In this document: positions 8,813-29,114 of the stretch, piece after piece | Position numbering within the stretch: position 1 is the first letter of the stretch | Layout: the number at the start of each line of letters is the position of its first letter | Source: a virus | Taxonomy: Duplodnaviria > Heunggongvirae > Uroviricota > Caudoviricetes | DNA: 29,114 nucleotides | Direction: 5' to 3' (one strand) | IMG/VR virus record: IMGVR_UViG_2526164597_000011 | The notes under the pieces: model-generated | Told to the model about the DNA's origin: nothing | Databases searched by the model: none | What the model saw: the letters and a program-made list of their open reading frames with translations, nothing else | Position numbers and translations under genes: made by a program

Positions 8813-9021
8813 CATTATTACCTTTTGAAGAAGTTAGCCCTTGGGCAGAATGGTCCGAAAAAAAATATCAGAGAGAAAAACCAACAAGGAAATCTCAAGA
8901 GGTACAAATAATAAAATTATAACAATGACTGCTTCAGATAATTTTGTAACAAACCAGAACACCATTAACGCATGATTAACCAACCATAGCAAGGATTACT
9001 TTTGTAGGTAATGACTCCAAC

Positions 9022-9525
9022 TTACTGATAGTGTTTTATGTTCAGATAATGCCCGATGACCTTGTCATGCAGCTCCACCGATTTTGAGAACGACAGTGAC
9101 TTCCGTCCCAGCCTTGCCAGATGTTGTCTCAGATTCAGATTATGTCGCTCAATGCGCTGAGTGTAACGCTTGCTGATAACGTGCAGCTTTCCCTTCAGGC
9201 GTGATTCATACAGCGGCCAGCCATCCGTCATCCATACCACGACCTCAAAGGCCGACAGCAGGCTCAGAAGACGCTCCAGTGTGGCCAGAGTGCGTTCACC
9301 GAAGACGTGCGCCACAACAGTCCTCCGTATCCTGTCATACGCGTAAAACAGCCAGCGCTGACGTGATTTAGCACCGACGTAGCCCCATTGTTCGTCCATT
9401 TCAGCGCAGACAATCACATCACTGCCCGGTTGTATGCGCGAGGTTACCGACTGCGGCCTGAGTTTTTTAAGTGACGTAAAACCGTGTTGAGGCCAACGCC
9501 CATAATGCGTGCACTGGCGCGACAT
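9022..9525 (-). CDS. insB: IS1 InsB (catalytic part of InsAB' transposase, produced by -1 frameshift)
   Basis: 167-aa ORF that overlaps insA in the -1 frame. Sequence is typical of IS1 InsB (…[42 protein letters not shown]…). Confidence 0.95.
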
Positions 9526-9719
9526 CCGACGCCATTCATGGCCATATCAATGATTTTCTGGTGCGTACCGGGCTGAGAGGCGGTGTAAGTGAACTGTAGT
9601 TGCCATGTTTTACGGCAATGAGAGCAGAGATAGCGCTGATGTCCGGCAGTGCTTTTGCCGTTACGCACCACGCCTTCAGTAGCGGAGCAGGAAGGACATC
9701 TGATGGAAATGGAAGCCAC
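9444..9719 (-). CDS. insA: IS1 InsA (DNA-binding transposition inhibitor, N-terminal part of InsAB' transposase)
   Basis: 91 aa, [40 protein letters not shown]…; Cys4 zinc finger plus HTH. The A6C slippery site (TTAAAAAACTC) lies at the insA/insB overlap. Confidence 0.95.
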
Positions 9720-9952
9720 GCAAGCACCTTAAAATCACCATCATACACTAAATCAGTAAGTTGGCAGCATTACCACTTTTGTAAAGAAAAACACACGAAT
9801 GAAACAATAGCTTTATTTATTAATAAAACGTGTCATTCTGTCTAATGACCTTTTATCTTACCCTTAAGATTTCAAGGATTTTGACTCATGGAAGAGTCCT
9901 TTTTATTTAAATTTCACATTCAGCGCTAAAAATAATCCGATTTAATATTAAT

Positions 9953-10450
9953 CTACATCTGATATTTTTTATCTCTTAAAGATTCATAAATCCGTTGACA
10001 AGTCACTCCTGCGATGTAGCGTTTGTCAGCAATTTCAGCATAAAGCTGAGCTTCTGCTGCAATATCTCCGAGCATGTTGGTGAGCATTCCTTCGGCGGCT
10101 TTGGTTGTTTTGCCTCTGACGGCAGCGGCAAGATTTGCGGTATGCTGCGCTGCGTCAAGGCGTATGGCATATTTTGTTGCTTCGGCACGCAGCTGGTTAA
10201 CACTATCAGACAGATCAGCAGCCCTGGCAGAAATTTCAGCGGCTTTCTGTTGTGCATCTTTAACAGCCTCATCACGGGATATACTTCGCCCCTGTTCAAT
10301 TATTCGAGCAGCAAATTGGACATTTACCTCTTGAGATAATTCGGCAGCATCACGCTCCGCCCATTTTTTTTGCCATCCTCTGTCGCTCCAGACATTACCT
10401 ACGACAAATCCTACCAACACGAGCAAAATCACCGTGAATATCTGATTCAC
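9953..10450 (-). CDS. Rz-like i-spanin (inner-membrane spanin)
   Basis: N-terminal TM helix ([15 protein letters not shown]), then a coiled-coil-rich periplasmic domain. Immediately downstream of the endolysin with a 4-nt overlap. Confidence 0.75.
10003..10272 (-). CDS. Rz1-like o-spanin (outer-membrane lipoprotein) embedded in Rz in the +1 frame
   Basis: ORF lies entirely within Rz. Signal peptide with lipobox LTSC, then a Pro-rich mature region ([17 protein letters not shown]). Start uncertain (ATG at 10272 or 10257). Confidence 0.55.
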
Positions 10451-10980
10451 TGTTCTATCCCCCAGCAGGTTAATGCACTCTCCTGGTCACGACGAATAAC
10501 CTGACCGTAACAATTATTTGAACGAATGCGGCAATCACGTCCACCGTCCTTTATCCACCAGCGAATCGCCTCGCATGCGCCTTTACGATCACCGGCATTA
10601 AGCCGCTTATAAAACGTCGACGGAAAACACTTACCAGGGCCAATGTTATAGGGACAGAATGACGCGATACCGGCTTTCTGTGGCTCGGTCAGTGGAACTT
10701 TTATATTGCGCTCCACCCATGCCAGCGCCTTATCACGCTCAATGGCGTTGACCTGGTCGCATTTTTCCTTCGACAGTTTCATATTGGGAAAAACGTTTTT
10801 TCCATCCACCACTGTGGCACCCCGACAGATGGTCCATATGCCAGAACCATCGCGGTATGCCATTGTGTGGTTACCTTCTTTTTCGTCCAGAAACTGGTCA
10901 AGTATCTGAGGAGCAGATGCGCCAGCACCAATCAGCGCCAGAACGGCAGCCGACAGGCCGTATCTGATTTTTGTGTTCAT
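10447..10980 (-). CDS. Endolysin, T4-lysozyme-like (GH24) with N-terminal signal-anchor (SAR-type)
   Basis: Hydrophobic Gly/Ala-rich N-terminus ([16 protein letters not shown]), then the lysozyme catalytic region E-G-x5-Y-x-D-x4-W-T-I-C-RG. Position between holin and spanins. Confidence 0.85.
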
Positions 10981-26891: not shown

Positions 26892-27143
26892 ATGAGCGAA
26901 GTAATCATGATTGTCTCTCCCGGCAAATGGGTATCCGAAGAGCAGTTAATTGCGCTGAAAGGAATAAAAAAAGGTACGTTAAAAAAGGCCCGGGAAAAAT
27001 CGTTTATGGAAGGAAGGGAATATAAGCATGTCGCTCATGACGGTATGCCATGGGATAACAGTCCATGCTTTTACAACCTGGAAGAAATTGATCGCTGGAT
27101 TGAGCGCCAGGCATCAGCAAGACCAAGACGTCATCTTACTTGA
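26892..27143 (+). CDS. Putative excisionase (Xis)
   Basis: 83-aa basic protein immediately upstream of the integrase on the same strand, with 19-nt spacing. Call is positional. Confidence 0.5.
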   Translation: MSEVIMIVSPGKWVSEEQLIALKGIKKGTLKKAREKSFMEGREYKHVAHDGMPWDNSPCFYNLEEIDRWIERQASARPRRHLT

Positions 27144-27162
27144 CTAAAAGCCACACTAACTA

Positions 27163-28383
27163 ATGAGAGAAGTTGAAATGAAATATCCGACAGGCGTGGA
27201 AAACCATGGAGGGAAATTACGTATCTGGTTTGTTTATAAAGGCGTAAGAGTCAGGGAAAACCTGGGGGTTCCTGACACAGCAAAAAACAGGCGCGTTGCA
27301 GGTGAGCTACGCGCCTCTGTTTGTTACGCAATAAAAACTGGTGTTTTCGACTATGCAAAACAGTTTCCCTCCTCACGCAATCTGGAAAAATTTGGTGAGG
27401 CCCGACAAGATTTAACCATAAAAGAACTGGCTGAAAAATTTCTGGCACTGAAAGAAACTGAAGTCGCAAAAACATCACTCAACACATACCGTGCCGTCAT
27501 CAAAAATATCCTGAGCATAATCGGTGAAAAAAATCTTGCCTCATCGATTAATAAAGAAAAATTACTGGAGGTTCGTAAAGAGCTACTGACTGGATACCAG
27601 ATCCCCAAAAGTAACTATATTGTTACACAACCAGGGAGATCGGCTGTAACTGTAAATAATTACATGACAAATCTTAACGCCGTGTTCCAGTTTGGTGTTG
27701 ATAACGGTTACCTGGCAGATAACCCGTTTAAGGGGATCTCGCCATTAAAGGAATCAAGAACCATTCCGGATCCTCTTTCGCGGGAGGAATTCATCCGTCT
27801 TATCGATGCGTGCAGAAATCAGCAAGCCAAAAATTTATGGTGTGTTTCTGTTTATACTGGCGTTCGCCCTGGTGAGCTGTGTGCACTTGGATGGGAGGAC
27901 ATAGATCTGAAAAATGGAACAATGATGATCAGGAGAAATTTAGCAAAAGACCGTTTCACGGTACCAAAAACACAGGCGGGAACCAATCGGGTCATTCATC
28001 TTATTAAGCCAGCAATCGACGCTCTCCGGAGTCAGATGACATTAACGAGACTGAGCAAAGAGCATATCATTGATGTTCACCTCAGAGAGTATGGCAGAAC
28101 AGAAAAACATAAATGCACCTTTGTTTTTCAACCTGAAGTGTCAGCGAGAGTAAAAAATTATGGTGACCATTTTACCGTTGACTCAATAAGGCAGATGTGG
28201 GACGCAGCGATAAAACGTGCCGGACTCCGCCATCGAAAATCATATCAGTCGAGACATACTTATGCCTGCTGGTCGCTGACAGCTGGTGCTAACCCGGCAT
28301 TTATAGCAAACCAGATGGGCCATGCAGATGCGCAAATGGTATTTCAGGTATACGGAAAATGGGTAATGCTGCCAACTTACTGA
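27163..28383 (+). CDS. Tyrosine integrase (IntQ-like), 3' end replaced by IS1
   Basis: Recombinase motifs (…VYTGVRPGELCALGWEDID…, …RHTYACWSLTAGANPAFIANQMGHADAQMVFQVYGKW). Native sequence ends at W (28361). The last 6 codons and the stop come from the IS1 left end starting at 28362. Likely native start is the ATG at 27178 (MKYPTGV). Confidence 0.85.
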   Translation: MREVEMKYPTGVENHGGKLRIWFVYKGVRVRENLGVPDTAKNRRVAGELRASVCYAIKTGVFDYAKQFPSSRNLEKFGEARQDLTIKELAEKFLALKETEVAKTSLNTYRAVIKNILSIIGEKNLASSINKEKLLEVRKELLTGYQIPKSNYIVTQPGRSAVTVNNYMTNLNAVFQFGVDNGYLADNPFKGISPLKESRTIPDPLSREEFIRLIDACRNQQAKNLWCVSVYTGVRPGELCALGWEDIDLKNGTMMIRRNLAKDRFTVPKTQAGTNRVIHLIKPAIDALRSQMTLTRLSKEHIIDVHLREYGRTEKHKCTFVFQPEVSARVKNYGDHFTVDSIRQMWDAAIKRAGLRHRKSYQSRHTYACWSLTAGANPAFIANQMGHADAQMVFQVYGKWVMLPTY

Positions 28384-28416
28384 TTTAGTGTATGATGGTG
28401 ATTTTAAGGTGCTTGC

Positions 28417-28692
28417 GTGGCTTCCATTTCCATCAGATGTCCTTCCTGCTCCGCTACTGAAGGCGTGGTGCGTAACGGCAAAAGCACTGCCGGACATCAG
28501 CGCTATCTCTGCTCTCATTGCCGTAAAACATGGCAACTACAGTTCACTTACACCGCCTCTCAGCCCGGTACGCACCAGAAAATCATTGATATGGCCATGA
28601 ATGGCGTCGGATGTCGCGCCAGTGCACGCATTATGGGCGTTGGCCTCAACACGGTTTTACGTCACTTAAAAAACTCAGGCCGCAGTCGGTAA
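28417..28692 (+). CDS. insA: IS1 InsA
   Basis: 91-aa product identical to insA of copy 1. Confidence 0.95.
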
Positions 28693-29114
28693 CCTCGCGC
28701 ATACAACCGGGCAGTGATGTGATTGTCTGCGCTGAAATGGACGAACAATGGGGCTACGTCGGTGCTAAATCACGTCAGCGCTGGCTGTTTTACGCGTATG
28801 ACAGGATACGGAGGACTGTTGTGGCGCACGTCTTCGGTGAACGCACTCTGGCCACACTGGAGCGTCTTCTGAGCCTGCTGTCGGCCTTTGAGGTCGTGGT
28901 ATGGATGACGGATGGCTGGCCGCTGTATGAATCACGCCTGAAGGGAAAGCTGCACGTTATCAGCAAGCGTTACACTCAGCGCATTGAGCGACATAATCTG
29001 AATCTGAGACAACATCTGGCAAGGCTGGGACGGAAGTCACTGTCGTTCTCAAAATCGGTGGAGCTGCATGACAAGGTCATCGGGCATTATCTGAACATAA
29101 AACACTATCAGTAA
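28611..29114 (+). CDS. insB: IS1 InsB (InsAB' catalytic part)
   Basis: 167-aa product identical to insB of copy 1. The A6C frameshift site lies at about 28666-28676. Confidence 0.95.

Follow-up and report, generated by a model that had tools for sequence, protein, structure and literature searches.

The stretch of DNA considered here (the window, 29,114 nucleotides; virus record IMGVR_UViG_2526164597_000011) corresponds to positions 62-29175 of contig AIHN01000044.1 in the draft short-read assembly GCA_000250475.2 of Escherichia coli DEC14D, and it carries a lambdoid prophage of the Qin type in which two copies of the insertion sequence (IS) IS1 are present. One copy lies in the late transcription unit and the other lies within the integrase gene, int, with the block of prophage genes between them being about 18.6 kb long. 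The contig begins 61 bp before the window, within the head genes, with the tail genes and the left prophage junction being located on another contig. The two IS1 copies, their reading frames and the direct duplications that adjoin them are as follows.

8998-9006, no strand: left 9-bp duplication of copy 1 (ACTTTTGTA), perfect
9007-9774, minus strand: IS1 copy 1, 768 bp, IS1F type
9022-9525, minus strand: insB' of IS1 copy 1, 167 amino acids
9444-9719, minus strand: insA of IS1 copy 1, 91 amino acids
9775-9783, no strand: right 9-bp duplication of copy 1 (ACTTTTGTA)
28353-28361, no strand: left 9-bp duplication of copy 2 (CGGAAAATG)
28362-29114 in the window, plus strand: IS1 copy 2, first 753 of 768 bp
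28417-28692, plus strand: insA of IS1 copy 2, 91 amino acids
28611-29114, plus strand: insB' of IS1 copy 2, 167 amino acids
29130-29138 in would-be window numbering, no strand: right 9-bp duplication of copy 2 (CGGAAAATG), just past the window end and read on the source contig

The repeat scan of the window gives one 759-nt inverted pair (9022-9780 and 28356-29114) together with IS terminal repeats of 23 bp at 9007-9029 and 9752-9774. Copy 1 has its right inverted repeat (IRR, 9007) toward cspI and its left inverted repeat (IRL, 9774) toward rzpQ. The window ends at position 29114 with the insB' stop codon of copy 2, which is 15 bp short of the IS1 end. The 753 bp of copy 2 within the window have 0 mismatches relative to the reverse complement of copy 1, and the complete copy 2 read from the source contig is identical to copy 1 (768/768), in inverted orientation, with the distance between the two copies being 18,587 bp (9775-28361). 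A perfect inverted repeat of 768 bp is impossible by chance.

Both copies have the anatomy of the IS1 family: a length of ~768 bp, a 23-bp terminal inverted repeat of the imperfect kind that in this family starts with GGTRATG, matched at 20 of its 23 positions, an A6C frameshift motif (AAAAAAC at position 307) with insA and insB' as joined frames, and a 9-bp direct duplication at the insertion site. The NCBIfam model NF033558, 'IS1 family transposase', is matched with 147.9 bits (cut-off 100). With regard to the isoform, the element is identical to IS1F of K-12 at 761 of 768 positions and to IS1A at 698 of 768 (90.9%). It shares with K-12 IS1F the length of 768 bp, the terminal inverted repeats, insA, the A6C −1 frameshift site, insB' and the 9-bp duplications. 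It differs from K-12 IS1F by seven bases and by having insB' as an intact frame of 167 codons, whereas insB7 of the K-12 IS1F is annotated as a pseudogene. This isoform is a common one, as 3,764 records from complete E. coli genomes have copies at least 99% identical to it. The two copies are presumably active in transposition, since their frames and ends are intact and both duplications are fresh.

Insertion sites and the inverted pair

The evidence on how the two copies arrived comes from their flanks and from a prophage in which both sites are empty. E. coli KE48 has the same prophage with neither IS1 present, and in that prophage ACTTTTGTA and CGGAAAATG are each single-copy at the expected places, with the empty site for copy 1 at 14997-15005 of the retrieved KE48 sequence (L003). 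Between the two IS1 copies, the DEC14D sequence aligns plus/plus to that of KE48 with 5 mismatches in 18,587 bp (99.97%). On the retrieved segment of the source contig (L002), copy 2 ends at 11952 and is followed immediately by the right CGGAAAATG at 11953-11961, beyond which int resumes with its last 31 codons (MSENNNAQVALLNTQLSEFAPTMPHNEAMKN), followed by the end of the prophage and the chromosomal genes rspB, rspA and ynfA. Because the empty sites are single-copy and KE48 is collinear, the two copies are independent simple insertions, both unrearranged. To the reading as a whole, namely that two IS1F-type copies transposed independently, by simple insertion, into the resident Qin-type lambdoid prophage of DEC14D, with the consequences for the integrase, for late transcription and for cspI that are set out below, we assign a probability of about 0.8.

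It is noted that the exact DEC14D junctions of either copy occur in none of 5,426 complete RefSeq E. coli genomes, where only nearby, different IS1 insertions are seen, and thus the two alleles are strain-specific and probably recent. In a set of about 15 billion proteins, the exact 401-residue fusion protein Int'-IS1 comes from a single contig. Since IS1 favours local hops (PMC5009759) and the two copies are identical, one of them may have given rise to the other.

When IS copies in inverted orientation recombine, the segment that they enclose is inverted and no new junction of this segment with the IS arises, so that short reads are blind to the event (PMC5009759). Inversions mediated by IS elements are well documented in E. 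coli (PMC4173774). The identical inverted 768-bp pair would allow the 18.6-kb early and lysis block to be inverted by RecA-dependent recombination, after which Q/pR' and the lysis genes would no longer be connected to the terminase and head genes. In this respect DEC14D resembles the long-term evolution and mutation-accumulation lines of E. coli, where identical inverted copies are the substrate of IS-mediated inversions and deletions (PMC4173774, PMC5009759). By contrast with those lines, in DEC14D only the substrate is present, assembled in the parental arrangement. An inversion by recombination between the copies or by duplicative transposition would leave mismatched flanking 9-mers (e.g. 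ACTTTTGTA-IS1-CATTTTCCG), and these are absent at both IS1 copies in the assembled sequence, where the duplications match and the block is plus/plus with KE48. The assembled molecule is thus in the parental arrangement, with no inversion. Minority inversion isomers would be compatible with a short-read draft assembly and are possible. Note also that looking for such isomers through a changed Int'-IS1 fusion protein is misconceived, because recombination inside the IS leaves the junction of the inner segment with the IS unchanged (PMC5009759), so that the isomer is invisible at the protein level.

The results above bear on most of what an earlier note on this DNA (the original prediction) had claimed from the window. 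It had described two identical copies of IS1 in inverted orientation, which the 768/768 identity on the source contig bears out, and had taken copy 1 as a simple insertion with a perfect duplication, in agreement with ACTTTTGTA being on both sides of copy 1 and single-copy in KE48. The duplication CGGAAAATG that it had foreseen past position 29114 is found exactly, after the complete copy 2. Its view that the inversion has not yet happened holds with the matching duplications at both copies and with the collinearity with KE48. Its further suggestion that the pair could mediate an inversion stands as mechanistically possible (PMC5009759, PMC4173774), with the inversion itself being hypothetical here.

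Probable effects of the insertions and alternative readings

The genes and transcripts adjoining the two insertions are as follows.

8554-8970, minus strand: cspI mRNA, Rfam RF01766 (cspA-type thermoregulator), 110.1 bits, full model 1-428
8600-8812, minus strand: cspI coding sequence, annotated in KE48 and K-12, with a long 5' leader
9953-10450, minus strand: rzpQ (DUF2514 spanin), Pfam PF10721, E = 3.6e-38, annotated in KE48
14128-14949, minus strand: Q-type late antiterminator, Pfam PF03589, E = 1.4e-54, PHROG 'anti-termination protein Q-like'
27178-28383, plus strand: int'::IS1, truncated integrase, 401 amino acids

Copy 2 splits int three codons past Y392, with the catalytic tyrosine being retained. 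The intact integrase has 426 residues, whereas the product in DEC14D has 395 native residues, ending at W395, and six residues encoded by IS1 (VMLPTY), with the stop codon inside the left end of IS1. At the junction, which reads ...QVYGKW, the W codon TG|G is finished by the first base of IS1 and is followed by V M L P T Y and the stop. The truncated product contains both PF12167 and PF00589, i.e. the arm-binding and the catalytic domains, and of the conserved segment after the tyrosine the last 31 residues are gone. The homologues with 58-78% identity, from many Enterobacteriaceae (n=22-31), all keep this tail and all have 424-438 residues. The tail in these homologues follows the motif W-M-x-[ED]-[NS]-x-x-x-Q-[IV]-x-x-L-N-x-K-L-x-x-F-A-P-x-M-P, in which M396, Q403, L407, P416 and P419 are invariant. 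In GenBank the protein is entered as EHX92942.1, 'qin prophage predicted defective integrase [Escherichia coli DEC14D]'.

Truncations of the C-terminal tail of lambda Int form a comparable class of mutants. The closest solved relative is Tn1549 Int (6EMY, E = 4e-09), with the nucleophilic tyrosine of which Y392 aligns. Subunits of Tn1549 Int exchange in trans the helix that follows the tyrosine, and the removal of the whole helix (variant 381C) lowers strand exchange, while the removal of 7 or 13 C-terminal residues gives more cleavage and strand exchange in vitro (PMC5871717). The cut in DEC14D corresponds to variant 381C, with the whole segment after the tyrosine being gone. The DEC14D integrase is thus like the C-terminally truncated Tn1549 Int variants 381C, 384C and 390C in being cut just past the nucleophilic tyrosine with the subunit-docking segment removed. 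It is unlike Tn1549 Int in that the sequence relatedness to 6EMY is low and in that the DEC14D protein is known from sequence alone. By analogy with the related tyrosine recombinases, the lost segment of 31 residues would form a helix docking onto the neighbouring subunit. The truncated integrase could then still bind and perhaps cleave DNA, but would be impaired in productive excision, so that the prophage would tend to stay fixed in the chromosome along with its cargo. Because the 31 C-terminal residues that are lost are conserved, we consider that excision is quite probably impaired.

Copy 1, by contrast with copy 2, breaks no gene. It lies in the spacer of 71% A+T from rzpQ to cspI, inside the late transcription unit, with its transposase reading in the direction of the late genes (minus strand). 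In this unit rzpQ is the last lysis gene upstream of copy 1, and the RNA polymerase modified by Q can get to the terminase and head genes only by crossing copy 1. Q proteins are polarity suppressors that make the polymerase resistant to termination through the late genes (PMC12360218). As the Q-modified polymerase resists both Rho-dependent and intrinsic termination, late transcription probably crosses copy 1.

The more likely local effect of copy 1 would be on the promoter of cspI. The 5' end of the cspI mRNA is predicted at ~8957-8970, so that the IS1 end at 9007 would be ~37-50 nt upstream of the start site. A cspA-like −35 hexamer, TTGCTA, is present at 8992-8987, 14 nt from the IS1 end. 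Here the start site was taken from the Rfam match together with the analogy with cspA, and the promoter hexamers were likewise read by analogy with cspA; the cspI promoter was not flagged in a simple promoter scan. With these positions, IS1 would now stand in place of the promoter sequence upstream of about −50, and copy 1 may alter the cold-shock expression of cspI.

Now we consider other explanations for the origin of the arrangement. In known composite transposons of IS1, a pair of IS1 copies brackets a set of genes, and in DEC14D also two identical inverted copies bracket a gene block, and hence it could be argued that IS1-18.6 kb-IS1 arrived as one unit, or that it arose from duplicative inversion by intramolecular replicative transposition. 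If a composite transposon had arrived, one duplication common to both outer ends would be expected. What is found is that each IS1 has its own direct 9-bp duplication, with the outer flanks, ACTTTTGTA and CGGAAAATG, being unmatched, and that the block is in its native position and orientation relative to the IS-free KE48. Had there been a duplicative inversion, the block would now be reversed, with a single duplication divided between the copies. Both origins are evidently inconsistent with these facts and are refuted. It could also be argued that the IS1 copies are the work of the assembler, which placed them or filled them in when the draft genome was built, as the source is a short-read draft and a repeat consensus can give perfect identity. 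However, exact 9-bp duplications of sequences that are single-copy at the empty sites are the signature of real IS1 transposition and are not made by an assembler. Moreover, an independent Logan assembly of another sample has an IS1 end at the same nucleotide of int, and therefore the int site is a genuine target. An assembly artefact is thus very improbable.

Turning to the consequences of the two insertions, the truncated integrase might be functional or even hyperactive and the prophage might still be able to excise, as all catalytic residues including Y392 are kept and short truncations of Tn1549 Int are hyperactive in vitro (PMC5871717). Against this, the cut three residues past the tyrosine takes the whole segment and so matches variant 381C with its reduced strand exchange, the lost segment is conserved both in length and in motif among the homologues with 58-78% identity, and the protein was named defective by the GenBank annotators; an integrase that is still functional or hyperactive, with excision still possible, seems unlikely. 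As regards copy 1, IS1 insertions in ordinary operons are classically polar in either orientation. Copy 1 is located inside the late unit between rzpQ and the terminase block, so that strong polarity could switch off the Q-dependent expression of the packaging and head genes and leave the prophage doubly crippled, with neither excision nor morphogenesis. This late operon, however, is read by a polymerase modified by the Q antiterminator, and copy 1 is intergenic. As the prophage encodes Q, and Q proteins suppress polarity, strong polarity is also unlikely.

In weighing the reading of two simple insertions with an impaired integrase, the following points count on the other side. Since the assembly is a draft, a repeat consensus could account for part of the perfect identity between the copies, and the orientation given for the block relies on spanning read pairs having been available to the assembler. 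For the intact integrase, AlphaFold gives the helix at 401-411 with low confidence, the per-residue confidence (pLDDT) being < 50 for 393-426, although a segment docking on another subunit can be expected to be modelled with low confidence. With every catalytic residue kept and small truncations of Tn1549 Int being hyperactive, residual or trans-complemented excision is possible. Finally, that late transcription crosses copy 1 in full is probable from the general behaviour of Q proteins.

With respect to these effects, the original prediction had located both insertions correctly: copy 1 is between the spanin genes and the csp/gns/terminase block (from rzpQ to cspI, inside the late unit), and copy 2 starts at 28362 right after ...QVYGKW and truncates int, with the junction reading as it had described. 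Its account of what follows needs to be revised. The tail of the integrase, which it had taken as replaced, is in fact interrupted, with the DNA for the 31 residues being intact directly after IS1, and the separation of int from its attachment site was overstated, as it amounts to 777 bp of extra spacing only. The polarity of copy 1 on Q-dependent transcription that it had expected is doubtful, given that a Q antiterminator (PF03589) is encoded and that Q suppresses polarity (PMC12360218). It had also named dispensability of the C-terminal residues in homologues as an argument that would tell against it, and the conservation of the tail in the homologues indicates that, by that test, these residues are not dispensable.

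The Qin-type host prophage

The element that received the two copies is a full-length relative of the cryptic prophage Qin of K-12, at the ydfJ/rspB locus, as judged from its rspB end and its gene order. On the source contig the end of int adjoins rspB, with the order int tail, rspB, rspA, ynfA, ynfB and speG, and the order int-rspB-rspA-ynfA is also present in K-12, KE48 and 90-9281. Within the prophage the gene order is that of Qin, with cspI, rzpQ, rrrQ, Q, ydfU, rem, hokD, DicF, dicB, ydfD, ydfE and int, as judged by the annotation of the KE48 prophage (99.5-99.97% identical) compared with K-12. The prophage has the terminase, portal, prohead protease/capsid, lysis genes, two tRNAs, the Q antiterminator and the replication module, and in addition repressors, DicF, dicB, an exonuclease, xis and int, and thus the Qin-type prophage of DEC14D is nearly complete. 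The block bracketed by the IS1 copies, and the RNA genes inside it, are as follows.

9784-28352, no strand: IS1-bracketed prophage block, ~18.6 kb, collinear with KE48
12845-13035, minus strand: STnc100-family small RNA, inside the block
13732-13808, minus strand: tRNA-Arg(TCT), inside the block
13909-13984, minus strand: tRNA with CAT anticodon, Met according to ARAGORN and Ile according to RefSeq in KE48
17347-17521, minus strand: sok antitoxin next to hokD, inside the block
23653-23704, plus strand: DicF small RNA, inside the block

DicF, sok and the cspA-type leader were found by the Rfam scan. The bracketed block has the lysis genes, the tRNAs, Q, RusA, ydfU, rem, hok/sok and the PD-T7-1 defence gene, followed by the replication module, the cro/cI-like repressors, DicF, dicB, the ydfE-like exonuclease gene, xis and int'.

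The likeness to Qin of K-12 extends to the locus itself, to the order gnsB-ynfN-ynfQ-cspI-rzpQ-rrrQ-ydfR-ess ... Q-ydfU-rem-hokD ... dicC/dicA-like repressors, DicF, dicB, ydfD, ydfE, int, rspB, and to the damage of the integrase by an insertion sequence, since intQ of K-12 is a pseudogene beside an IS2E remnant. By contrast, the prophage of DEC14D is far more complete than K-12 Qin, having the terminase, portal, capsid and replication genes, xis and a near-whole int. The insertion sequence is IS1 in DEC14D and IS2 in K-12, and PD-T7-1 is present in DEC14D where K-12 has relBE/ydfV/flxA. This gene (18096-19445, plus strand, 449 amino acids) has no Pfam match and is assigned by PADLOC to the single-gene anti-phage defence PD-T7-1 (E = 4e-157). 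The slot that it occupies holds variable cargo, namely relBE/ydfV/flxA in K-12 Qin and a QueH-like gene in the prophage of contig DRR174583_7778 discussed below.

Note also that the identity to KE48 is 99.47% to the left of copy 1 and 99.97% to its right. A recombination breakpoint at copy 1, with a link to IS1, was considered as an explanation and rejected, because the differences on the left are all at 106-6606 (head, portal and terminase), with none in 6607-9006.

Taken in this context, the two insertions are ordinary IS-driven prophage decay, within the known kinds and with nothing new in type. They give a clean and fully resolved example of insertion sequences beginning to ground a largely intact prophage, by a route resembling that behind the cryptic Qin of K-12, where the integrase is damaged beside IS2, and the case carries little wider weight. 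For annotation, its use is that the DEC14D integrase is to be described as truncated by IS1, rather than as deleted or as moved from its attachment site by rearrangement.

IS1 near the 3' end of int in other prophages

Insertions of IS1 near the 3' end of int also occur in other Qin-type prophages. In the Logan assembly of run DRR174583, an unrelated sample, an Int' ends with ...GKWVMTPTY, and on contig DRR174583_7778 (11185-11208) the right end of IS1 (GGTAATGACTCCAACTTACTGATA) is at the same nucleotide of int as in DEC14D (window 28361/28362), in the opposite orientation. The prophage on this contig is a different one of the Qin type, with a QueH-like cargo and with an exonuclease gene having up to 61 differences per 300 bp. 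The different prophage together with the opposite orientation suggests that IS1 inserted at this nucleotide independently in the two cases.

In E. coli YSP8-1, two IS1 copies are present in the same integrase gene (376-1073 and 1670-2437 of the retrieved sequence). One of them, with its start 8 bp downstream of the site used in DEC14D, lacks a matching duplication and runs directly into sequence from ~215 bp further along; this is a deletion adjacent to IS1, with which the int tail and the prophage end were lost. The second is further up int. In strains 4600 and H1827/12, an IS1 is present in the spacer from int to rspB, ~178 bp after the int stop codon (about 1836-2603), and an IS1 of similar placement in this spacer occurs in at least a dozen complete genomes. 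Relative to a uniform expectation, IS1 near int would be in only a few-fold excess, by a crude estimate that counts related lineages as if they were independent.

That the 3' end of the Qin-type integrase gene is a recurrent IS1 target, irrespective of orientation, is a tentative and rather doubtful proposal, with the recurrence of IS1 at int being an observation rather than a demonstrated hot spot. The recurrence could reflect a structural hot spot, or it could reflect repeated selection for locking the cargo, i.e. PD-T7-1, hok/sok, DicF/DicB and CspI; in a weaker variant, the inverted IS1 pair could mobilise or flip the cargo block. A site for integration host factor (IHF) was considered as the cause of an int hot spot. 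With the consensus WATCAANNNNTTR and at most one mismatch allowed, no match was found within 100 bp of the int site and one 1-mismatch match was found near the site of copy 1, and the scan gives no support to this explanation. The repeated use by IS1 of the same few base pairs of int in unrelated strains is the only mildly interesting thread here, and it may be due to chance.

Finally, we note that in E. coli VTB97584v (3278-4529) an IS1 joins a 5'-truncated rzpQ to the ydfE-like exonuclease gene, with the lysis-Q-replication-immunity block, which is roughly the block bracketed in DEC14D, being deleted.

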